Assembly: GCA_044506615.1 (NCBI GenBank)
Contig: JBIQKJ010000005.1
Coordinates: 568 to 64,567 of the forward strand
Length of the DNA stretch: 64,000 nucleotides
DNA from: Chloroflexota bacterium
GTDB lineage: Bacteria; Chloroflexota; Limnocylindria; Limnocylindrales; CSP1-4
Direction of reading: 5' to 3'
Under the pieces are notes generated by a model that ran no database searches, was not told where the DNA came from, and was given only the letters and a program-made list of their open reading frames with translations. Positions 40,996-52,776 of the stretch are shown here, piece by piece (within the stretch, counting starts at the first letter, position 1; every line of letters begins with the position of its first letter). Made by a program: the position numbers and the translations under genes.

Positions 40996-42387
40996 TCACT
41001 CCCCGTCGTCCTCGAGGAGGGACGCGGCGAGCAGCAGCAGGGTCGGCCGGTCATTGAGGGCAGGGTCGGCGATGACGCGATCGAGCAGCTGATCGAGGAT
41101 CCGGCCGATCCGCGGACCCTGCGGCAGCCCCAGCTCCCCGATGAGGTCGTGCCCGTCGACCGCGAGGTCGTTCCGGTCGAGCACGGTGTCGGCGGCAAGC
41201 TCGGCGGCGACCCGCTCGCGCAGCTCCCCGAGCCCTCCGGCATCCCGGCGGAGCCCGCTGCCGACGTTGTCCGCCTCGCGGAGATCGAACAGCTCGTCGA
41301 GGGTTTCGACCCCGATCTTGCCGATGAACCGGCGCACCGCCGCATCCGACCACGCCGGCTCGTAGCTGAACATGTGCTGGCGAACGAGGTTGCCGACGCG
41401 CTCGCGCACCGACCTCGGGGCGTGCAGGCGGTCGAGGATCGCGATCGCCATGTCGGCCCCGACGGTGTCGTGACCGAGGAAGTGCCCGTCCGAGAAGGTC
41501 GGCGGCTTTCCGACGTCGTGGAGCAGCGCGGCCAGCCGCACCATCGGCCGGTCCAGGCGAGCGGCATCGACGGACCGGAGCGTGTGCGCCCACAGGTCCT
41601 CGCCCGGCACCTTGTTCTGCGGGATCCCGCGCTGGGCGGCGAGCTCGGGCAGCAGCGCGTCGAGCAGACCGGTGTCGGCCATCAGCCGCAGCCCCACCGA
41701 CGGCCGATCCGCGGCGAGCAGCTTGGTGAGCTCGGCCCACACCCGCTCACCCGACAGGTGGCGGACGAGCGGTGCGTTCGCGGCGATCGCGCGGAGGGTG
41801 TCGGGCTCGATCGTGAAGCCCAGCGTGGCCGCGAGCCGAACGGCCCGGACCATGCGCAGCGCGTCCTCCTCGAACCGGCGGCGCGGCTCGCCCACCGCCC
41901 TGAGCAGGCGGCCATCGATGTCGGCCTGCCCGTCGTACGGGTCGACGAGCGCCGGCTCGCCACCCGGTGGCGCCCCCCACGCCAGCGCGTTGATCGTGAA
42001 GTCGCGCCGGGCCAGGTCGTCCTCGATCGAGTCGCCGAACTCGACCCGGTGCGGACGGCGGAAGTCGGCGTAGTCGTGGTCGCTGCGGAACGTCGTCACC
42101 TCGTACAGGGCGTCGCGATGACGAACCGCGACCGTGCCGAACGCGTTCTCGTAGACCGAGCCCGGAAAGAGCGCGAGCACGGCGTCGGGGCGCGCGTCCG
42201 TGGCGAGGTCCCAGTCGTCGGCGGGTCGCCCGAGGAGCGCGTCGCGCAGCGAGCCACCGACGACATAGGCCGCGGAGCCGGCTTGCCAGAGGGTCGCCAG
42301 CAGCTCCCGGACCGGGTCGGGGATCGTGGCGGCGACGCCGGTCAGCTCCGACCTCAGTTCCGACCCAGGAACAGGTAGCTCCGCCAC
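40996..42387 (-). CDS. cca: CCA tRNA nucleotidyltransferase / HD-domain protein
   Basis: VGGSLRD, DWDLAT, RRDFTINA, EDALRM.R, ERVWAEL, LLHDVGK. Start codon uncertain. Confidence 0.9.
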   Translation of the reverse strand: MAELPVPGSELRSELTGVAATIPDPVRELLATLWQAGSAAYVVGGSLRDALLGRPADDWDLATDARPDAVLALFPGSVYENAFGTVAVRHRDALYEVTTFRSDHDYADFRRPHRVEFGDSIEDDLARRDFTINALAWGAPPGGEPALVDPYDGQADIDGRLLRAVGEPRRRFEEDALRMVRAVRLAATLGFTIEPDTLRAIAANAPLVRHLSGERVWAELTKLLAADRPSVGLRLMADTGLLDALLPELAAQRGIPQNKVPGEDLWAHTLRSVDAARLDRPMVRLAALLHDVGKPPTFSDGHFLGHDTVGADMAIAILDRLHAPRSVRERVGNLVRQHMFSYEPAWSDAAVRRFIGKIGVETLDELFDLREADNVGSGLRRDAGGLGELRERVAAELAADTVLDRNDLAVDGHDLIGELGLPQGPRIGRILDQLLDRVIADPALNDRPTLLLLAASLLEDDGE

Positions 42388-42869
42388 GCCTCGTTGCGCT
42401 CGTCCGACAGGTATGGCGTGAACAGCGAGTAGATGTCGGAGCGCGGCTCGAACGGCGGTCGGTGCAGGCGGAGCCGCGCCTCCTCGAGCGTCTTGCCGCC
42501 CTTCCGGTGGTTGCACGCCTTGCAGGCGGTCACGAGGTTCTCCCACGTGTGGCCCCCGCCGCGATGCCGTGGCACCACGTGGTCGAGCGTGAGGTCGTGC
42601 GTCTGTCGTCCGCAGTACTGGCAGGTGTGCCGGTCGCGGGCGAAGATCTCGCGCCGCGACAGCTTGACCCGGGGTCGAGGTCGCCGCACGAGGTGCTGGA
42701 GACGGATCACGGACGGCGCGCGGTACTCGACCCGCGGCGTCCGCACCATCTGGTGGTCGAACTCGATCACCTCGGCCTTCTCGCCGAAGACGAGGCGGAA
42801 GGCTCGCGGCAGGTTGCAGACGTTGAGCGGCTCGTAGTTCTGGTTCAGAACGAGTACGACACCGTCCAT
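42354..42869 (-). CDS. HNH endonuclease (conserved McrA-like housekeeping family)
   Basis: VLVLNQNYEPL, RDRHTCQYCG, TLDHVVP...GG.HTWENLVTAC..CN..K. Confidence 0.92.
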   Translation of the reverse strand: MDGVVLVLNQNYEPLNVCNLPRAFRLVFGEKAEVIEFDHQMVRTPRVEYRAPSVIRLQHLVRRPRPRVKLSRREIFARDRHTCQYCGRQTHDLTLDHVVPRHRGGGHTWENLVTACKACNHRKGGKTLEEARLRLHRPPFEPRSDIYSLFTPYLSDERNEAWRSYLFLGRN

Positions 42870-42915
42870 GTTCGGCCGCGACGATAGCAGAACGGGGGAT
42901 CGGGGCCCGGCGAGC

Positions 42916-43854
42916 TCAGCCCGGGGGCCAGGCGCCGGCCTGCCCGACCTTCGATGCGAGCGGTCGACCGAGGGCGTCGGCGATGAACCGGGCCGCTGCC
43001 AGCACGCGCCCGAGGTCGACGCCGGTCTCCCACCCCTCGGCGTCGAGGAGGTAGACGAGGTCCTCGGTCGCGAGGTTGCCCGCGGCCCCCGGAGCGTACG
43101 GACAGCCGCCCGTCCCGCCGGTCGACGCGTCGAAGCAGCGGATGCCCAGGCCCAGCGCGGCCGAGACGTTGGCGAGCGCCGTCCCACGCGTGTCGTGAAA
43201 GTGGTACGCGATCCGGTCGAGCGGGATCCCGGCCGCCTCGGTCAGCCCGGTCAGCTCCTCGACCTGGGCGGGCACGCCGACGCCGATCGTGTCGCCGTAG
43301 CACACCTCGTCGATGCCGAGGTCGAGCAGGCGGCGCGCGACCTCGAGCGGCCGGGCCGGGTCCACCCGGCCCTCGAACGGGCAGCCGAAGGCGGTCGAGA
43401 CGTAGCCGCGGCTCCACCAGCCGAGGACCCGGGCGCGGTCGACGACGGGCCGGAAGGCGTCGATCGACTCGTCGACGGTCATCCCGATGTTGCGGCGCGT
43501 GAACTCGTCCGTGGACGCGGTGAAGACCGCGACGGCGTCGACACCGGCCGACTCGGCGCGGGCCAGGCCGCGTGCGTTCGGAACGAGGACGGGGTAGCGG
43601 ACCCCGGGACTGCGCTCGAGCGTCGTCATGAGGTCGTCCGCGTCGGCGAGTTGCGGGATTGCGGCGGGGGCGACGAAGCTCGTGGCCTCGATCTCGGCCA
43701 GACCGGCCTCGGCGAGCAGGCCGATGAACCGGCGCTTGACCTCGGTCGGGACCGGCGTGGCCTCGTTCTGGAGACCGTCGCGTGGGCCGACCTCGTAGAC
43801 CCGGACTCGCCCGCGCGCCCCGCGCGCGTCGCCGGTCCGTGGCCCTGGGGTCAT
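42916..43854 (-). CDS. liuE: Hydroxymethylglutaryl-CoA lyase
   Basis: EVGPRDGLQNE, IEATSFV, GDTIG, HFHDTRG, GGCPYAPGAAGNLATED. Confidence 0.95.
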   Translation of the reverse strand: MTPGPRTGDARGARGRVRVYEVGPRDGLQNEATPVPTEVKRRFIGLLAEAGLAEIEATSFVAPAAIPQLADADDLMTTLERSPGVRYPVLVPNARGLARAESAGVDAVAVFTASTDEFTRRNIGMTVDESIDAFRPVVDRARVLGWWSRGYVSTAFGCPFEGRVDPARPLEVARRLLDLGIDEVCYGDTIGVGVPAQVEELTGLTEAAGIPLDRIAYHFHDTRGTALANVSAALGLGIRCFDASTGGTGGCPYAPGAAGNLATEDLVYLLDAEGWETGVDLGRVLAAARFIADALGRPLASKVGQAGAWPPG

Positions 43855-43861
43855 CCTCGGC

Positions 43862-44059
43862 TCAGACCCGGGGCGGGTCCATCTCCCGCTCGAGCCGCGC
43901 GATCTCGACCTCGATCCGCCCGATCAGGTCGATGGCGGCCTTGTGCTCCTCGCTTCCGTGCGCAGCGGCGTTCCGGCGGGCTCGGGTCGCGCGGTGCAGC
44001 TCGAGCAGCTCGGCACGGGTCTGGGGGAGCGGCGGGTCGGCGGAGCGTGGCGCGGTCAT
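43862..44059 (-). CDS. Small helical hypothetical protein (65 aa)
   Basis: GAGGAG RBS; LPQTRAELLELH...IEVEIARLER. Confidence 0.7.
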   Translation of the reverse strand: MTAPRSADPPLPQTRAELLELHRATRARRNAAAHGSEEHKAAIDLIGRIEVEIARLEREMDPPRV

Positions 44060-44193
44060 CGTTCCGTGGATCTCCTCTCGATGGATCGCCGAGAGCGTAC
44101 CGCGTCGGCGCGCGATGCGAGGGATCCGACCGGGGCGTCCGCTCGGCCCCTGGACGACCCGGGGCCTCTCCCCGGCATTCGCCGCAGTCGAAC

Positions 44194-44369
44194 GCTTTCG
44201 TGCCGAAGCAAGCGAGGATGGCTCCCTGGCGACCGAGTGTCCGCCCCGGGCGAACAGTCCACGAGCGAAAGCACCCGATCGCGGGCCGTCGACCTCGGAA
44301 CGTCCGCTGTAGCCGAACGGCACGATGCGGCGAGCCCCCCTCGCGACCGAATGTTCGCGCTCGGCGAAC
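44194..44369. repeat. Intergenic REP-like composite: 32-bp direct repeats and nested inverted repeats
   Basis: 44224-44255 vs 44338-44369 match at 26/32 ungapped. GCTTTCG/CGAAAGC and CGTGCCG/CGGCACG inverted pairs. Confidence 0.6.
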
Positions 44370-44417
44370 GTTGCGCCGAAAGGTCCGGCGCGGCCTGCGG
44401 TCACCACCCCCGGCGCA

Positions 44418-46445
44418 TCACGGCTCGACGACCGCGACGACGGCTCCGCGCACGACCTGCGCCCCGGCGGCGACCTCGACCGCAGTCACCCGCCCCGCGA
44501 TCGGCGCCGTCACCGCATGCTCCATCTTCATCGCCTCGAGCGTCACGAGGGGATCGCCGGCCTCGACCCCGGCGCCGACTGCCACGTGCACCGACGCGAC
44601 GGTCCCGGGCATCGGGGCCGTCACCTCGAGGGGTCCGCCCTCGTGCGCGTGGGCCGCGGCCGCCCGTGCCGCCCGATCGACGTCCGGCGGCGGCGCGAGC
44701 CGGAACGGGACGCTGCGGCCGTCGACGTCGACATGGACCGTGTCGCCGATCCGCACGCGCGCACGCGCAGGCGTAGCTCCGCGAGGCGTCGTCGGGAGCC
44801 GCACCATGCGCCCGACTCCCTCCGCCTCGAGCCGGACCGAGGGCGACGCGTTGATCCGCCACCCACCGGTCCACGGGTCGGTCTGCGGGTCCCCGGCGAG
44901 GAAGAGGGTCGCGGCAACGGACCAGGCATCGTCGGGGATCGAGTCGCCGTCCCGTGCAGCCCCGGCAGGCGGCCAGATCGCGTCGAGCGTGTCGATCCGC
45001 GCCTCGCCGGTTCGCAGGATCGGGTGCCGCACGAGCCATCGGAGAAAGCGCAGGTTGGTCGTGAGCCCGAGCACGACGGTCTCGTCGAGGGCCGTCGCGA
45101 GCCGGTCGAAGGCAGCTCCCCGGTCCGGGCCGTGGGCGACGATCTTGGCGAGCATCGGATCGAACCGGTCGGTGACCATCGAGCCGACCTCCACGCCGGC
45201 GTCGACCCGGACCCCCTCGCCGTCCGGCCAGCGCAGTGCCTCGATCCGACCCGTCGCCGGCAGGAACCCCGCCTCGGCGTCCTCCGCATAGAGCCGGACC
45301 TCGACCGCGTGGCCCTCGGAACGGACGTCGTCCTGCCCGAACCCGAGCGGCTCGCCCGCGGCGATCCGGAGCTGGTCCGCGACGAGGTCGCGTCCCGTGA
45401 CGAGCTCGGTCACCGGGTGCTCGACCTGGAGCCGCGTGTTCATCTCGAGGAACACGAACTGGCCCTCCCCGTCGAGCAGGAACTCGCACGTCCCTGCCGA
45501 CACGTAGCTGACCGCCCGGGCGAGCGCCAGCGCCGCGTCCCCGAGGCGCCGTCGGATCGCTGGGTCGACCGCGGGCGACGGCGTCTCCTCGAGGACCTTC
45601 TGGTGACGCCGCTGGATCGAGCAGTCGCGTTCGCCGAGGTGGACCCCCGTGCCGAAGGCGTCGAACAGCACCTGGACCTCGACGTGCCGCGGCCCCTCGA
45701 GGTAGCGCTCGAGCACGAGGCGCTGGTCGCCGAACGCCGCCTGCGCCTCGCGGCGCGCCGCGGCCAGCGCGGCGTCGAGCTCGGGGAGGCTCCGCACCAC
45801 GCGCATCCCCTTGCCGCCGCCACCCGCGGCCGGTTTCACGAGCAGCGGCGCCCCGATCCGGCGGGCGGCGGCGCGGAGGGCCCCGTCCGACTGGTCGGCG
45901 CCGTCGTACCCGGCGGCGACCGGGATGCCGAGCTTCGTGGCGAGCCGACGCGCCGCGGCCTTGTCGCCCATCGCCCGGATCGCCTCGGGCGGGGGACCGA
46001 CCCAGCGCATGCCGGCGCGCTCGACCGCGGCGGCCAGCTCGGGTGACTCGGCCAGGAATCCGAACCCGGGATGGACCGCATCGGCCGATGCGGCGGTCGC
46101 GGCGGCGACCACCGCGCCGACGTCGAGGAGGTCGACGGCGTCCGGCCCCTCGGTCGGTGGGGCGATCGCCACGATGCCCACACGTGCGCACGTGCGCTCG
46201 ATCCGGGCGGCGATCTCGCCCCGGTTGGCGATGAACAGCCGGCCGATGGCCCGCGAGGCTGCGGCTCCGTCAGCCCGGTGAGGCGCAGCGCGTCGGTCGA
46301 ACGCGTCAATCGCGTCAATCGCGACACGCCACCGACCGCCCACGCGTCGCGCCGGGAGCGTCCCTGCCGCTATCCATCGCTGCACCGAGCGGGTCGTCGT
46401 GCCGAGTCGTTCGGCAGCCTCTCGCGGCGTCAACTCTTCGGCCAT
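44418..46445 (-). CDS. liuD: Acyl-CoA (methylcrotonyl-CoA) carboxylase alpha subunit (BC + biotinyl domain) with N-terminal excisionase/HTH_17 domain
   Basis: LTPREAAERLG...VQRWI..G.LPARRVGGRWRV; then ANRGEIA, HPGFGFLAE, GGGGKGM, RDCSIQRRHQK, EMNTRLQVEH, EAMKME. Confidence 0.92.
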   Translation of the reverse strand: MAEELTPREAAERLGTTTRSVQRWIAAGTLPARRVGGRWRVAIDAIDAFDRRAAPHRADGAAASRAIGRLFIANRGEIAARIERTCARVGIVAIAPPTEGPDAVDLLDVGAVVAAATAASADAVHPGFGFLAESPELAAAVERAGMRWVGPPPEAIRAMGDKAAARRLATKLGIPVAAGYDGADQSDGALRAAARRIGAPLLVKPAAGGGGKGMRVVRSLPELDAALAAARREAQAAFGDQRLVLERYLEGPRHVEVQVLFDAFGTGVHLGERDCSIQRRHQKVLEETPSPAVDPAIRRRLGDAALALARAVSYVSAGTCEFLLDGEGQFVFLEMNTRLQVEHPVTELVTGRDLVADQLRIAAGEPLGFGQDDVRSEGHAVEVRLYAEDAEAGFLPATGRIEALRWPDGEGVRVDAGVEVGSMVTDRFDPMLAKIVAHGPDRGAAFDRLATALDETVVLGLTTNLRFLRWLVRHPILRTGEARIDTLDAIWPPAGAARDGDSIPDDAWSVAATLFLAGDPQTDPWTGGWRINASPSVRLEAEGVGRMVRLPTTPRGATPARARVRIGDTVHVDVDGRSVPFRLAPPPDVDRAARAAAAHAHEGGPLEVTAPMPGTVASVHVAVGAGVEAGDPLVTLEAMKMEHAVTAPIAGRVTAVEVAAGAQVVRGAVVAVVEP

Positions 46446-46447
46446 GG

Positions 46448-46479
46448 TGTCGCGATTGTCGCGCCTCGCCCGCCTCGCC
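46448..46479 (-). promoter_or_regulatory. Promoter with 9-bp-period direct repeats upstream of the HTH-carboxylase
   Basis: GGCGAGGCG x2 and CGCGACA x2 on the minus strand, between TTGCCG (-35) and the ATG, overlapping GACAAT (-10). Confidence 0.55.
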
Positions 46480-46510
46480 GGCAAGCGTTGACATCGGGCC
46501 GGGCCCCGGC

Positions 46511-47317
46511 TCAGCCCTCGTCGTCGGGCGCCCAGGCCGGTCGGCGCTTCTCGGTGAAGGCGGCGAACCCCTCCTGCGCCTCCGCGCTCGTTCGCTGCCG
46601 CGCGATGACCCGGGCGGTGTGCCACTTGGCGGCGCCATGCCCCAGGCCGCGGACCTCTCGCACGATCGCCTTCGCGGCGCGCGCGGCGGTCGGTCCCGCT
46701 GCCAGGACGTCGGCGACGGCAGTCTCGACCGCGGCGTCGAGCGCCGCCTCGCCTTCGACGACCTCGTGGACGAGCCCGATGCGCTGGGCCCGCACCGCGT
46801 CGAATCGCCGACCGCCCGGAAAGAGCGCCCGGGCGTGGGTCTCGCCGATCTTCGCGATCACGAACGGTCCGATCATCGCCGGCAGGATGCCGAGCCGGGT
46901 CTCGGTGAAGCCGAAGCGCGTGCCCGACTCCGCGATGACGACGTCCGACACCGCGCACAGGCCCATCCCGCCCCCGAGTGCCGCGCCGTGGACGCGCGCG
47001 ATCACCGGCACGGGGCACGTGTCGATCGTCTCGAACATCTCGGCCCCGGCCATCGCGTCCTGCTCGTTGCCCTCGACGTCGAGCCGCATCGCGGCGCGCA
47101 TCCAGTCGACGTCGGCGCCCGCGCAGAACGACCGCCCTGCGCCCGTCAGGACGACCGCCCTGAGGGCCGTCGGGCCCTCGCGGGCGAAGCCGGTGAACGT
47201 CGTCCGAAGCTCGGCGATGAGCGTCGCGTTGAAGGCGTTGTGGACGTCCGGGCGGTCGAGCGTGACCCGCGCCACGACGCCGTTCGGACCGGTGCGCTCG
47301 ACGCGGACGAGCGCCAC
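46511..47317 (-). CDS. liuC: Enoyl-CoA hydratase (methylglutaconyl-CoA hydratase-like)
   Basis: LDRPDVHNAF, FCAGAD, ALGGGMGL, FGFTETRLGI.PA. Confidence 0.9.
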   Translation of the reverse strand: MALVRVERTGPNGVVARVTLDRPDVHNAFNATLIAELRTTFTGFAREGPTALRAVVLTGAGRSFCAGADVDWMRAAMRLDVEGNEQDAMAGAEMFETIDTCPVPVIARVHGAALGGGMGLCAVSDVVIAESGTRFGFTETRLGILPAMIGPFVIAKIGETHARALFPGGRRFDAVRAQRIGLVHEVVEGEAALDAAVETAVADVLAAGPTAARAAKAIVREVRGLGHGAAKWHTARVIARQRTSAEAQEGFAAFTEKRRPAWAPDDEG

Positions 47318-47321
47318 TGCG

Positions 47322-48107
47322 CTATCCGGCAGCCTGGGGGACGGCGTCGAGCACGGTGACCGCGTCGCCGAGTCGAATGCGACCCGGGCGCTCGACCTCG
47401 CCCCAGACGCCGAAGTCCACGTTCTCCCCGCCGCGCAGGCCGCGGTAGGCGATGATCGTGCGCAGCGTGTCCAGGTCGCGCTCGCCGGTGTCGGGATCGT
47501 GGGTCGTGATCGCGCAGCGCGGGACCTGCTTGCTGACGTACAGCTCCGCCTCGCCGACCCGGATCGTGCCGCCGATCCAGCTGTCCTCCTCGTGCGGCGC
47601 GCAGTCCCGGAGCTCGATCAGCATCCGGAACCGCCGACCGTCCACCGCCCCGACGCCGAGGTGCGATGCGAGGACGTCGAGCGATCCGTCGCCGACGAGC
47701 GTGGCCGGGTGCTTCTCGCGCGTGCCGCCGGGTCGGTCGACCCTGACGAGCCGGACGCGCCGGCCCGCGAACGGCTCGAGCGCCTCGGCCCACGGACCGT
47801 CGACGACATGCCCGTACGCGGTTCGGCCGTACATCGGGGTCACGATCGGCTCGGTGGGCCGGACCTCGTCCTCGATCACCCGACCGTCGGGGAAGGTGAG
47901 CCGGAGCGTCGTCGCGTCGCGGTCGGTGTGAGCGGCGACCTGCACGAGGCGGCCGGCCAGCAGGTTGTCCACGAGACGGCCGCCCTCGGTGATGAGGTAG
48001 AACCGGCGGTCCTCGGCAACGCCCCGCTCGGTCAGCTCGATCTCCGCGGGATGCTCGAGCGCGAGCGCCTTGACGGGGGCGATCGACAGGCGGGCGACGG
48101 TCGGCAT
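47322..48107 (-). CDS. MOSC domain protein
   Basis: APVKAL, DRRF, RRFRM, VPRCAITT.DP.TG, GVWGEVERPG.I..GD. Confidence 0.9.
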   Translation of the reverse strand: MPTVARLSIAPVKALALEHPAEIELTERGVAEDRRFYLITEGGRLVDNLLAGRLVQVAAHTDRDATTLRLTFPDGRVIEDEVRPTEPIVTPMYGRTAYGHVVDGPWAEALEPFAGRRVRLVRVDRPGGTREKHPATLVGDGSLDVLASHLGVGAVDGRRFRMLIELRDCAPHEEDSWIGGTIRVGEAELYVSKQVPRCAITTHDPDTGERDLDTLRTIIAYRGLRGGENVDFGVWGEVERPGRIRLGDAVTVLDAVPQAAG

Positions 48108-48157
48108 TGGCGGATGCTAGCCCATCGGCTCGAAGCGATGACGCGCACAATTCGGAC

Positions 48158-49099
48158 ATGCAGGTCACGCTGCCGAAGGCGAGCCCCGCCACGATTCCGG
48201 ACGACTGGACCGTGTGGGCCGCGACCGACCTGCACGGCCAGCTCGACGCGACCCGTGCCGCGCTGTTCGAGGCGCGGCTCGTCGACGATGCCGGGCGCTG
48301 GATCGCGCCGGCGGGGACGGCGTTCGTTGTGTGCGGCGACATCGTCGATCGCGGGCCGGACTCACTCGGGCTGCTTCGGTACCTGGTCGGGCTCCGCGAG
48401 GAGGCCGCGGTCGCCGGGAGCGCCGTCGCGCTGCTCGAGGGCAACCACGAGCTCCAGACGCGGCTGGCGATCGAGGGCGACCCGCTCGTCGCGGAAGCGT
48501 GGATGGTGTTCGGGGCGCCTGCGCTGCTCGTCTCGGCCGGGATCGCGGAGGGAGCGTTCTCGTACGACGATCCGCTCGACGCCGCCCGGCAGCTGGCCGC
48601 CGCCGCCCCGGACATCGCGACCGAGATCCGCGCCCTGGCGCCGTACGCCCGTTGGCGCGACGTGCTGCTCGTCCACGGCGGACCGGTGCCGGGGGTTGCA
48701 TCGCTGGAGGACTACGCGGCCAGCGTCGAGCGGTTGTGGATCCGCGCCGCGTTCTTCGACGCGCCCGAGCCGTTCCCGGACCATCCGGTGTGGCTGCGCT
48801 ACCGCGACGCAGGGATTGGGCGCGTCGTGTTCGGCCACACGCCGGTCGCGGCGCCGACCGCGTACCACGGAGGACGCGCCCTCAATATCGACACGTGGAA
48901 GGGCGGCCTGGTCACGCTGGCCCGGCTCGAGCCCGACGGCGTCCCGCTTGCCGGTCAGTTCGTCAGCGCGCCGGTTGCGCCTCGGCTCCCGGAGGCGCGG
49001 CCGCCCGCCGCCGACGCCGGTCCTCGCTGGGACGCCATCCTGCCGCCGCACATCGACCGGCTCCGAGCGACGGTGGGGGCAGCCGCGACTACATCCTGA
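48158..49099 (+). CDS. Metallophosphoesterase (PPP/ApaH-like Ser/Thr phosphatase family)
   Basis: DLHG, GDIVDRG, GNHE, VHGG, FGHTP. Confidence 0.9.
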
Positions 49100-50687
49100 A
49101 CACGCCGAACCGAGTCTCGGGGATCGGCGCGTGGAGCGCTGCCTCGATCCCGAGCGCAAGGATGCGCCGCGTGTCGAGCGGGTCGATGACCCCGTCGTCC
49201 CAGAGGCGCGCCGTGGCGTAGTACGGGTTTCCCTCGCGCTCGTACGTCTCGAGGATCGGCGCTTCGAAGGTCTCACGCTCCTCGTCGGAGCCGAAGCCGC
49301 CTCGGACCGTCGACAACACCCGGGCCGCCTGCTGGCCGCCCATGACGCTGATGCGTGCGTTCGGCCAGGTCCACAGGAAGCGCGGTTGATAGGCCCGCCC
49401 GGCCATCGCGTAGTTGCCGGCCCCGAAGCTGCCGCCGACGATCACCGTGAGCTTCGGCACCTCGGCGCTCGCGACCGCCGTCACGAGCTTCGCCCCGTCC
49501 TTCGCGATGCCGCCCGCCTCGTACTCGCGCCCGACCATGAAGCCCGTGATGTTCTGGAGGAACAGCAGCGGGATCCGTCGCTGCGCCGCGAGCTCGATGA
49601 AGTGCGCGCCCTTGAGCGCCGACTGGCTGAACAGGATCCCGTCGTTGGCGAGGATGCCGATCGGATAGCCCTCGAGGTGGCCGAAGCCGCACACCAGCGT
49701 CTCGCCGTAGCGTGGCTTGAACTCGTGGAACCGGCTGCCGTCGAGGAGGCGGGCAATGATCTCGCGGACGTCGACGGCGCGCCGCGGATCCGACGAGATC
49801 GCGGCATAGAGGCTTCCCGGATCGACGGCGGGCGGCTCGGGGGCGCGCCGGTCCCAGGGGAGCGGCGGGGGACGCCGGTTCAGGTTCGCGACGATCGACC
49901 GACCGAGCGCGAGCGCGTGCTCGTCGTCGAGCGCCTCGTGGTCGGCGACGCCCGAGAGCCGGGTGTGGACGTCCGAGCCGCCGAGGTCCTCGGCGCTGAC
50001 GTCCTCGCCGGTCGCGGCCTTCACGAGCGGCGGACCGCCGAGGAAGATCGTGCCGGTGCCACGGACGATGACGGTCTCGTCGCTCATCGCCGGGACGTAG
50101 GCGCCGCCGGCCGTACAGCTGCCCATCACGAGCGCAACCTGCGGGATCCCGAGCGCCGACATCCGGGCCTGGTTGTAGAAGATCCGCCCGAAGTGGTCGC
50201 GGTCGGGGAAGACCTCGGCCTGGAGCGGCAGGAACGCGCCGCCCGAGTCGACGAGGTAGATGCACGGCAGCCGGTTCTCGAGCGCGATCTCCTGCGCCCG
50301 CAGGTGCTTCTTCACCGTCATGGGGTAGTACGTGCCGCCCTTGACGGTCGCGTCGTTGGCGACGACGACGCACGTCGTGCCTTCGACCCGCCCGATCCCG
50401 GTCACGATCCCCGCGCTCGGCGCCTCGTCGTCGTAGAGGCCGTTGGCGGCGAGCGGGCTCAGCTCGAGGAACGCCGAGCCGGGGTCGAGCAGCCGATCGA
50501 TCCGCTCGCGGACGGGGAGCTTGGCGCGTTCCCGGTGCCGGGCGATCGAGCGATCGTCGCCGCCGGCGCCGCGGCCCGCGACCGCCTCCTGTCGGTTGCG
50601 CAGCTCCTCGACGAGGACGGCCATCGCCGCGTGGTTCGCCCGGGCGTCCGGGCTGTCGAGGTCGAGCCGGCTCCGCAGGACGGACAT
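49089..50687 (-). CDS. liuB: Methylcrotonyl-CoA carboxylase beta (carboxyltransferase) subunit
   Basis: [54 protein letters not shown]. Confidence 0.95.
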
Positions 50688-50752
50688 GGCGGGATGATAG
50701 GCGCGCATCGTGCCGACGGAACCGGCGGCCCCGCTCGGGCGTCCTGCGTGCC

Positions 50753-51962: not shown

Positions 51963-52002
51963 GGGTCCGCTCCTCAAGCGTGCTACTGTTGTATAGCAAG
52001 TT

Positions 52003-52776
52003 ATGGCCGAGAAACACGCTACTGTCAATGGGCAAGTTCCCGACACCGGTGCCCCCGTGCGCCCGGTGAGGCGGGGCTCGCCCACGGCCGAATCGATCCG
52101 CCTCGATCTGGCCAGCGCATGGGGCGAGATGGGCGCCGCGTGGGGCGTCACGCCCGCGATCGCCCGGGTGCAGGCCTACCTCATGGCGCGTCAGGAGCCC
52201 CTCACCGAGCGCGAGGTCCGCGAGGCGCTCGGCTTGAGCCACCGCGCTGCGAGCCTGGCACTCGCCGAGGCGGAGTCGTGGGGGATCGTCGAGCGGGTGC
52301 CGGAGCCGCGGCGTGTCGGACGCCGGGGGCCTGCCGGGACCGCGTACCTCGCGGTCGGGGACCACTGGCAGTGGTTCGGGCGGGTGATCGCCGAGCGGAA
52401 GGTCCGGGAGGGCGACCCGATCGTCAAGGTGCTCGAGGCGAAGGCCGAGGAGGCAGCCCGGGCGGCCGCCGAGCACCCCGACGACACCGAGCTCGCCTCG
52501 CTGCGCGACTGGCTCGCGGCATTCCTCGTGTTCGTTCGCCTGTTCGACCGGGCGATCGGGCTCGTGCCGAAGCTCGAGCCGCGCGAGCTCGAGCGGGGGT
52601 TGAACCTGCTCGGCCGGGTGCCCGACGAGACGATCCTGCGGCTGTTCGACCTGCTCGCCGGTCTGCCCGACGAGGACGTGCTCGACCTGGTCGAGGCGCT
52701 GTCGCGACTGTCGCCGACGGCCGCCCGGCGCGCGACGAAGCTCATGTCGGGGGTCGTGCGCACGGTCGCGCGCTGA
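52003..52776 (+). CDS. GbsR/MarR-family transcriptional regulator with C-terminal extension
   Basis: MGAAWGV....ARVQAYL...PLT..EVREALGLS....S..L.E...WGIV. Start uncertain. Confidence 0.85.
   Translation: MAEKHATVNGQVPDTGAPVRPVRRGSPTAESIRLDLASAWGEMGAAWGVTPAIARVQAYLMARQEPLTEREVREALGLSHRAASLALAEAESWGIVERVPEPRRVGRRGPAGTAYLAVGDHWQWFGRVIAERKVREGDPIVKVLEAKAEEAARAAAEHPDDTELASLRDWLAAFLVFVRLFDRAIGLVPKLEPRELERGLNLLGRVPDETILRLFDLLAGLPDEDVLDLVEALSRLSPTAARRATKLMSGVVRTVAR

Follow-up and report, generated by a model that had tools for sequence, protein, structure and literature searches.

We report a gene in which a helix-turn-helix (HTH) DNA-binding domain is fused to the alpha subunit of methylcrotonyl-CoA carboxylase (MCC). 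It lies in a stretch of 64,000 nucleotides from contig JBIQKJ010000005.1 of a Chloroflexota bacterium of the class Limnocylindria, and we refer to this whole stretch as the window. New in this analysis are two conserved nucleotide elements: E1, located at the promoter of the fused gene, and E2, located inside its coding sequence. Read together with the DNA-binding domain, these elements suggest, with a confidence somewhat better than even, that the protein is a trigger enzyme which would autoregulate its own transcription through E1.

The fused gene is a single stop-free open reading frame (ORF) of 675 amino acids that begins with ATG. High third-position GC (>0.9) follows its frame along the whole gene, and the only place where another frame carries this signal is the enoyl-CoA hydratase gene upstream, with its end at 46511. 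The initial annotation of this DNA had read here an HTH_17-type domain in frame with a complete biotin carboxylase (BC) and biotinyl-lysine protein. This was borne out by Pfam and NCBIfam matches in the one ORF: HTH_17 at residues 5-49, Biotin_carb_N in two stretches, CPSase_L_D2 at 161-367, Biotin_carb_C at 382-488 and Biotin_lipoyl at 607-672. In an alignment of 23 sequences (A1), the biotinylation motif E637-A-M-K640-M-E, the BC glycine-rich loop and the motif E334-N-x-R-x-Q-V-E342 are invariant, as are K162, K204, H254, K283, E321, E334, N336, R338, Q340, E342 and R384, which we take to correspond to the active-site residues of E. coli BC. The enzyme part is predicted to be a catalytically intact MCC alpha subunit, and judged by its sequence the gene product is a functional-looking MCC alpha subunit within a leucine/HMG-CoA cluster.

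The AlphaFold model of the 675-residue protein reached a predicted local distance difference test (pLDDT) score of 82.9. Its top Foldseek matches were MCC alpha chains (human, Trypanosoma, Legionella, Pseudomonas and Mycolicibacterium), with the alpha chains of propionyl-CoA carboxylase (PCC) and long-chain acyl-CoA carboxylase (ACC) scoring nearly as high and the BT region (residues 490-600) having low pLDDT. With the canonical MCC alpha subunits of P. aeruginosa (3U9S), human, M. smegmatis and L. pneumophila, the protein shares 34-40% identity and the architecture of BC, BT and biotin carboxyl carrier protein (BCCP) domains. Its partner likewise matches MCC beta, the carboxyltransferase (CT) of the cluster aligning with P. 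aeruginosa MCC beta (3u9r_B) at E 7e-227, compared with 1e-132 for geranyl-CoA carboxylase beta and 1e-79 for PCC beta. In contrast to the canonical subunits, the fused clade lacks about 19 residues of the BC N-subdomain, at Pfam profile positions ~30-58, and it is this deletion that the initial annotation had seen as a shortened BC N-terminus. The deletion does not go with the fusion: L021, a relative without the HTH, shares it, and P0231, a distant HTH fusion, does not. Among the matched MCC alpha chains (588-678 residues), we know of none with an N-terminal DNA-binding domain. The genome of the window encodes two further BC paralogs.

The N-terminal domain matches HTH_17 (PF12728) at E 5.4e-12 and 46.2 bits (gathering cut-off 27) and the NCBIfam model TIGR01764, "excisionase family DNA-binding", with a score of 42.3 (cut-off 28.8). 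AlphaFold 2 predicted a helix at residues 7-14, a second helix at 18-27, a beta hairpin at 32-42 and a further helix at 43-56, with pLDDT 86.5. A PDB sequence search with the domain returned mycobacteriophage Pukovnik Xis, RacA and BldC, and Foldseek matched its model to Pukovnik Xis (template modelling (TM) score 0.75-0.80) and to the BldC-DNA complex (TM 0.74, root-mean-square deviation 1.4 Å), followed at lower ranks by RacA-DNA, RdfS and the N-domains of MerR-family proteins; the entries 4j2n, 6ama, 6amk and 8dgl gave TM 0.72-0.80. Where the title or source paper is known, the DNA-bound structures among these matches are those of BldC, RacA, HiNmlR and SoxR. The domain shares with BldC of Streptomyces, Pukovnik Xis and RdfS both the HTH_17 family and a winged-helix fold without coiled coil (TM 0.74-0.80). 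These proteins, however, are free-standing, 55-70 amino acids long, and found at developmental promoters or att sites, whereas the fused HTH forms the N-terminus of a 675-residue enzyme expected to assemble into an alpha6-beta6 complex. As it is part of an enzyme of this type in all orthologs and never a free-standing protein of the HTH_17 family, we regard it as a domain-level member of HTH_17 and not as an ortholog of BldC or Xis. We rejected a classical MerR regulator because the coiled coil is absent, the HTH is followed by a disordered, variable linker and BC, and the Pfam MerR match (18.5 bits) fails to reach the cut-off (28.2).

Across orthologs, the HTH is conserved at least as strongly as the catalytic core and is under strong purifying selection. 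In 19 sequences, L5, P7, A11, G15, R19, Q22, R23, W24, I25, G28, L30, P31, R34-G36, R38, W39, V41 and A42 are invariant, and so is the recognition helix R19-x-V-Q-R23-W-I. In a phmmer alignment, R23 of the QRW motif pairs with the arginine of BldC TRW, which is BldC Arg30 in our numbering; in BldC this residue reads the C-G pair of each site (PMC5859096), and the arginine is conserved in the fused HTH. The 12-35 residues after the HTH vary in length and sequence among orthologs (A1), and in the full-length model residues 53-63 have pLDDT <50 and are predicted to be disordered. This linker contains no conserved Met or Val, and an internal start yielding an HTH-less enzyme was accordingly discarded. 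The genome contains 13 HTH_17 matches, that is, about 12 HTH_17 domains besides the fused one, and a tblastn search of the genome found no close paralog of the fused HTH. Separately, we observed in a library of representative proteins six members of about 390-560 amino acids (P0154, P0160, P0164, P0166, P0177 and P0199) with 5-8 tandem HTH_17 domains related to the fused HTH, which look like a covalently linked version of a head-to-tail HTH filament.

The fusion extends across a clade. An assembly artefact or a singleton, which the initial annotation had named as the cases that would undo it, are both excluded by its presence in independent short- and long-read assemblies, several of which are long-read chromosomes or megabase-scale contigs. 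Among the best 120 matches taken from a search of 5.8 billion proteins, 119 show full coverage, 66-74% identity, a length of 656-711 amino acids and the architecture of PF12728, BC and biotinyl domains; their source names include Candidatus Limnocylindrales, Chloroflexota and Methylomirabilota metagenome-assembled genomes (MAGs). In a collection of species-representative genomes, the loci matching residues 1-145 are all from Chloroflexota. A survey of the window's class (151 genomes, 36 genera) for the junction of HTH and BC found it in 73 genomes and 22 genera. By family, the junction is present in 24 of 45 genomes of the window's own family (f1), in 49 of 50 genomes of f4, at about 50% identity, in none of the 49 genomes of f3 and in none of the 6 of f2. 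The most distant fusion found with an N-terminal 110-residue query (P0231, locus L081) has 45% identity.

HTH-less relatives also exist, so the enzyme has persisted through gain or loss of the HTH domain. In two of them (L021 and L026) the BC gene lies in a tight operon of CT, enoyl-CoA hydratase, BC and HMG-CoA lyase that lacks E1, and in a third (L036) the BC domain is 66% identical to that of the window and the protein begins directly with a short linker. Apparent HTH fusions in other phyla (L022, L045, L047 and L039; Planctomycetota, Bacillota, Lachnospiraceae and Actinomycetota) were dismissed as spurious upstream extensions, several with stop codons. Two long-read MFD MAGs (L018 and L025) carry a frameshift in the HTH-coding region, at codons ~33-40 of the fused gene and just upstream of E2; both adjoin the CGCG-rich element and are most likely long-read indel errors. 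The number of 50%-identity clusters is inflated by many frameshifted copies. In a full-text literature search, we found no published account of a biotin-dependent carboxylase carrying a fused HTH.

E1 (tGCGACAATCGCGAC) spans the -10 box and the start site of a predicted leaderless promoter. Its two cores, (T/C)GCGAC AAT CGCGAC, follow each other at 9-bp spacing, and a -10-like hexamer, GACAAT (46455-46460), lies within it. In f4 this hexamer stands 6 nt before the start codon and in f1 9-10 nt, without a Shine-Dalgarno sequence, and in many orthologs TTGnnn is found 16-18 nt upstream of it. E1 is present in about 40 of the 41 fused loci inspected. In the aligned upstream DNA, all 21 f1 loci read tGCGACAATCGCG(A/C)CAC, ending 0-4 nt before ATG, and the f1 members L082 and L083 also carry E1; outside E1 the upstream DNA of f1 diverges, as do the identity of the upstream gene and its distance (45 bp to >5 kb). 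In f4, 19 of 20 loci read cTGCGACAATCGCGAC, followed directly by ATG or GTG. The distant fusion L081 reads GGCGACAAACGCGACATTTCGCGCC and then ATG, with E1 shifted by one unit and TTGACG 17 nt upstream of GACATT.

Judging from their sequence, the genes of the cluster appear to be leaderless, with a TAnnAT hexamer 6-7 nt before the start codon and no Shine-Dalgarno sequence: TATCAT-N6/7-ATG at CT (50687-50700), TAGCAT-N6-ATG at the MOSC gene (48108-48121) and TACGAT-N6/7-GTG at the enoyl-CoA hydratase gene. At these three promoters the hexamer alone is conserved among ortholog loci and the spacer varies freely. The 14-17 invariant positions of E1 therefore go well beyond ordinary promoter conservation.

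The element is also specific to the fused gene. The E1 15-mer has a single exact copy in the 3.48-Mb genome. The exact 14-mer GCGACAATCGCGAC occurs 54 times in the 151 genomes, as compared with no occurrence of the reversed control; 45 of the 54 copies lie directly upstream of an HTH-BC start on the same strand, and the remaining 9 are mostly inside ORFs. Exact E1 precedes the gene in 41 f4 genomes, whereas the 49 fusion-free f3 genomes contain only 4 copies of the 14-mer, all inside ORFs. A wider regulon was rejected, as neither a position weight matrix (PWM) scan of 21 loci, covering up to 9 kb on either side, nor a whole-genome mismatch scan gave convincing extra sites. One genome (G041), with no HTH-BC match at the threshold used, has an exact E1 14-mer (L110, G041:C33:22199-22212), followed one base later by the ATG of a gene for an unrelated, predicted membrane-anchored protein. 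In the window, a copy with one mismatch, GCGACAGTCGCGACA, at 52700-52714 on the minus strand, falls in the 3' end of a winged-helix gene; its position is not conserved in orthologs, and it is probably due to chance. Two further candidates were set aside: extra E1-like sites in L005, which belong to conserved coding sequence (AFVVF) in the gene upstream, and a tandem GGCGAGGCG GGCGAGGCG repeat in the -35/-10 spacer (46461-46478, minus strand), which is specific to this genome and conserved in no ortholog.

The second element, E2, reads GAACGCGTC TAACGCGTC AGACGCGAC on the opposite strand, that is, three CGCG(A/T)C cores with 9-bp spacing; in a mismatch search it appeared as inverted copies of E1 within the gene, at 46303-46326, about 125 bp downstream of E1. 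When the codons of 19 f1 orthologs were aligned and synonymous entropy was scaled to the codon usage of these genes, its minimum for the whole gene fell at residues 40-49 (H/Hexp 0.158, the next independent minimum being 0.446), and codons 1-38 show normal synonymous variation. Arg at codon 40 is CGT in 18 of 18 sequences at a CGT usage of 8% in the aligned orthologous genes; Val at codon 41 is always GTC (19/19); and Ala at codon 42 is GCG in 15, GCA in 3, GCT in 1 and never GCC, whose usage is 46%. Ser at codon 43 is TCT in 9 and AGT in 2, Leu at codon 46 is TTA in 9 of 12 (usage 1%), and Ala is GCG throughout at codons 45 (18/18) and 48 (19/19). In f4 the peptide of the wing differs (R-V-S-R-S-S-L), and 12 of 20 loci still encode GTG TCG CGT TCG TCG at +122/+125, the inverse of GCGACGAACGCGAC. 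The two families thus have GTGTCGCG in common in different codon registers, cGT GTC GCG in f1 and GTG TCG CGt in f4, indicating that the nucleotide sequence and not the peptide is conserved. E2 as an internal promoter was rejected, because no conserved -10 box lies downstream.

The layout of both elements resembles that of BldC sites. On direct repeats, BldC subunits are arranged head to tail, each covering a 9-bp site, with the consensus AATTxxxx(C) (PMC5859096). The cores of E1 and E2 are likewise spaced by 9 bp, with an A-rich head and a terminal C, and the E1 unit AATCGCGAC fits this outline; the core of the BldC repeat is AATT, however, whereas that of E1 and E2 is GC-rich (CGCGAC). In the mechanism we propose, the BldC/Xis-type domain, tethered by the flexible linker, would bind the 9-bp-spaced YGCG(A/T)C repeats at its own promoter, and the alpha subunit would control, most likely repress, its own unit of alpha, small ORF and HMG-CoA lyase genes. 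Repression would probably occur through promoter occlusion, given the overlap of E1 with both the -10 box and the predicted leaderless start of transcription. Since an MCC alpha trimer or holoenzyme would carry several tethered HTHs, which may act together at E1 and E2, the inverted E2 could serve as a second site for cooperative binding or for looping between the two elements. DNA binding may also respond to the state of the enzyme, namely its assembly with beta, its biotinylation or its substrate. Autoregulation is the most economical explanation because a DNA-binding domain with an invariant recognition helix and an invariant, gene-specific repeat are found in the same gene, the latter at its -10/+1 region, and because HTH and E1 co-occur across two families at about 50% divergence and are jointly absent in HTH-less relatives. 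More tentatively, and as an idea we would not back as it stands, MCC alpha or the alpha6-beta6 holoenzyme might itself be a transcription factor whose BldC-like domains polymerise head to tail on E1 and E2 and loop or coat the promoter-proximal 150 bp, with binding dependent on beta assembly, biotinylation or substrate load.

Trigger enzymes with a fused DNA-binding domain include BirA (biotin ligase and repressor), PutA (proline dehydrogenase and repressor) and NadR, and BirA also couples biotin metabolism to transcription. As in these proteins, the window protein appears, from its sequence and model, to join a DNA-binding domain and an enzyme in a single chain; its candidate operator lies on its own promoter and, unlike theirs, includes an intragenic copy. 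It further differs from BirA and PutA in being a biotin-dependent carboxylase and in having an Xis/BldC-type fold, and not the winged HTH of BirA or the ribbon-helix-helix of PutA. A functional parallel is E. coli acetyl-CoA carboxylase, whose subunits have been proposed to control their own synthesis, AccB acting on accBC transcription and the carboxyltransferase on accA/accD mRNA. The carboxyltransferase-mRNA model is disputed; AccB has no recognisable DNA-binding domain, whereas the fused protein has a dedicated, conserved one together with a candidate operator.

Several observations weigh against autoregulation through E1. One fused gene (L100) lacks E1, and E2 is missing in 8 of 20 f4 loci; E1 is perfect in these 8, implying that it does not depend on E2. 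Genome mismatch and PWM scans found no copy of E1 at the beta-subunit gene or at other pathway genes, and as the motif was found only at the fused gene, the evidence covers the alpha-subunit transcription unit and not the whole cluster. The initial proposal of an enzyme that regulates its own transcription has gained considerable indirect support from a gene-specific, 9-bp-periodic element on its own -10/+1 region in nearly every ortholog and from a synonymously constrained inverted element in its coding sequence, and has to be narrowed to that unit. In addition, the -10 box lies within E1, so that promoter function explains part of its conservation, and L036, a close relative without the HTH, retains a degenerate promoter resembling E1, GGCGACAATCGG, before its ATG. 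The roughly 12 other HTH_17 domains, or the conserved winged-helix protein near the cluster, could bind E1 instead. Lastly, RNAalifold predicts that E1 and E2, which are complementary, pair in a long-range stem, so that an RNA mechanism is also conceivable.

The promoter overlap, the promoter of L036, the E1 copy with its ATG in G041 and the supply of other HTH_17 and winged-helix proteins all fit an explanation in which E1 serves as a specialised promoter or is bound by another regulator (one of the other HTH_17 proteins, the syntenic protein with a winged helix or an alternative sigma factor). The fused HTH would then act as a RacA-like nucleoid tether, at other loci or through protein contacts, and RacA is among its structural matches. 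We consider this unlikely, although it deserves to be kept in mind. E1 tracks the fusion through f4, where nearly every genome is fused and most have the exact element, and through f3, where there is no fusion and E1 stands before no gene; no close HTH paralog was found in the genome; units spaced by 9 bp agree with how the closest structural relatives bind DNA; and a cognate pair is expected to keep, as here, both recognition helix and motif invariant across about 50% divergence.

Rather doubtful is a purely RNA-based role, in which E1 would pair with E2 about 125 nt downstream in hydratase read-through transcripts and sequester the start codon, the role of the HTH being unrelated. RNAalifold drew a 10-bp E1:E2 stem and let the second half of E2 fold into a local hairpin, the two elements are complementary at 15 of 16 positions in the window and at 12 of 14 in f4, and in several loci the stop codon of the hydratase is only 45-65 bp upstream. 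Yet none of 29 pairs shows compensatory changes (covariation term -0.35), the A/C polymorphism of E1 breaks a pair to which E2 does not respond, the third unit of E2 has no partner in E1, and E1 is perfect in the 8 f4 loci that lack E2. Moreover, with the -10 box within E1, 6-10 nt before the start codon, the leaderless layout, as at the neighbouring genes, would place E1 outside the gene's own transcript. Least credible to us is that the HTH binds E1 and activates, distorting a sub-optimal promoter (GACAAT -10, 17-18 bp spacer) in the manner of MerR-type and BldC proteins: although the consensus first T is missing from the -10 box, the window has an 18-bp spacer and BldC is a regulator that bends DNA strongly (PMC5859096), the conserved cores lie over the -10 box and start site, which by position is the classic place for RNA polymerase occlusion, and the dimerising coiled coil needed by classical MerR activators is absent here.

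Table 1. Features of the fused gene, its candidate control elements and the surrounding cluster (window coordinates).
Feature	Position	Strand	Basis or remark
Fused-protein coding sequence (HTH_17, linker, MCC alpha subunit BC-BT-BCCP)	44418..46445	-	ORF, Pfam/NCBIfam, third-position GC, Foldseek
HTH_17 / excisionase-BldC-type winged helix, residues 5-49	46299..46433	-	Pfam, AlphaFold 2, Foldseek
Flexible linker, residues 53-65 (12-15 residues in window protein)	46251..46289	-	pLDDT, variable columns in A1
Biotin carboxylase domain, residues 66-488, ~19-residue N-subdomain deletion	44982..46250	-	Pfam/NCBIfam and alignment A1
BCCP (biotinyl) domain, EAMKME motif, biotinyl-Lys K640	44430..44627	-	Pfam Biotin_lipoyl 607-672
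E1, candidate operator GGCGCGACAATCGCGACACC, two YGCGAC cores 9 bp apart	46446..46465	-	Directly before ATG
Candidate -35 hexamer TTGCCG, 18 nt upstream of GACAAT	46479..46484	-	Read from sequence
E2, intragenic, codons 39-49: TGG CGT GTC GCG ATT GAC GCG ATT GAC GCG TTC	46299..46331	-	Synonymous constraint
CCA-adding enzyme	40996 to about 42400 (open frame 40996-42546)	-	
HNH nuclease	42354 to about 42900 (open frame 42354-43187)	-	
HMG-CoA lyase, downstream of fused gene, probably co-transcribed with it	42916..43854	-	NCBIfam NF004283, conserved synteny
Small unannotated ORF between alpha and HMG-CoA lyase	43862 to about 44131 (within 43862-44407 open frame)	-	
Enoyl-CoA hydratase (methylglutaconyl-CoA hydratase type), upstream neighbour	46511..47317	-	
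MOSC protein	47322-48107	-	
Metallophosphoesterase	48107-49099	+	
MCC beta (CT), separate transcription unit, leaderless promoter TATCAT-N6-ATG	49089..50687	-	PDB match, promoter layout
259-residue winged-helix protein, divergent beyond MCC beta gene	51997-52776	+	PDB 5jbr (MJ223) likeness, weak MarR_2 match

The genes around the fusion (Table 1) agree with the leucine-catabolism cluster that had been proposed at the outset: alongside the MCC beta match there are an HMG-CoA lyase above its NCBIfam cut-off (NF004283, 365 bits against 246) and the adjacent enoyl-CoA hydratase, and the synteny of the cluster is kept in about 20 loci. On account of the leaderless layout, with its hexamer 6-7 nt before the start codon, we place the start of the carboxyltransferase at 50687 and not at the 50708 of the longer ORF. 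The absence of an adjacent regulator, also noted initially, was only partly right, as a conserved, syntenic winged-helix protein is encoded 1.3 kb beyond the beta-subunit gene. Residues 35-123 of this 259-residue protein resemble winged-helix proteins (PDB 5jbr, MJ223; weak MarR_2 match), its orthologs (L003, L007, L008, L010-L012, L015, L018 and L025) are syntenic with 69-88% identity, and it is possibly a second regulator of the cluster.

A small ORF invariably lies between the MCC alpha and HMG-CoA lyase genes. It is conserved, with 62-76 amino acids in orthologs (L082:3546-3776, L083:2266-2454) and a C-terminus ending in IARIERAMDPPLV, and might encode a carboxylase-associated small subunit; its identification as an ACC epsilon subunit was rejected, as it has no Pfam match even at E 10. 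Genes for an HNH endonuclease and a CCA-adding enzyme follow HMG-CoA lyase in nearly all orthologous loci, a stable and unexpected association.

Trigger enzymes form a small, well-studied set and, to our knowledge, none of them is a biotin-dependent carboxylase. Autoregulation of E. coli acetyl-CoA carboxylase has long been proposed without a visible DNA-binding module, whereas here the module, its tether and a candidate operator can be read from the sequence in more than 70 genomes. One candidate regulatory site, E2, lies within the codons of the same domain by which it may be bound, and the elements provide a natural example of BldC-type 9-bp repeats outside Actinobacteria. The idea of autoregulation is directly testable with a 60-residue domain and a 200-bp DNA fragment, and the locus gives initial access to gene regulation in Limnocylindria, an abundant uncultured lineage of soil and freshwater. 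If the more tentative reading is true, in which MCC alpha or the holoenzyme is itself a transcription factor, this would be the first biotin-dependent carboxylase shown to have specific DNA binding and a mechanistic counterpart to the unexplained autoregulation by AccB, and leucine-catabolic capacity in these bacteria would be set by an enzyme that senses its own state.

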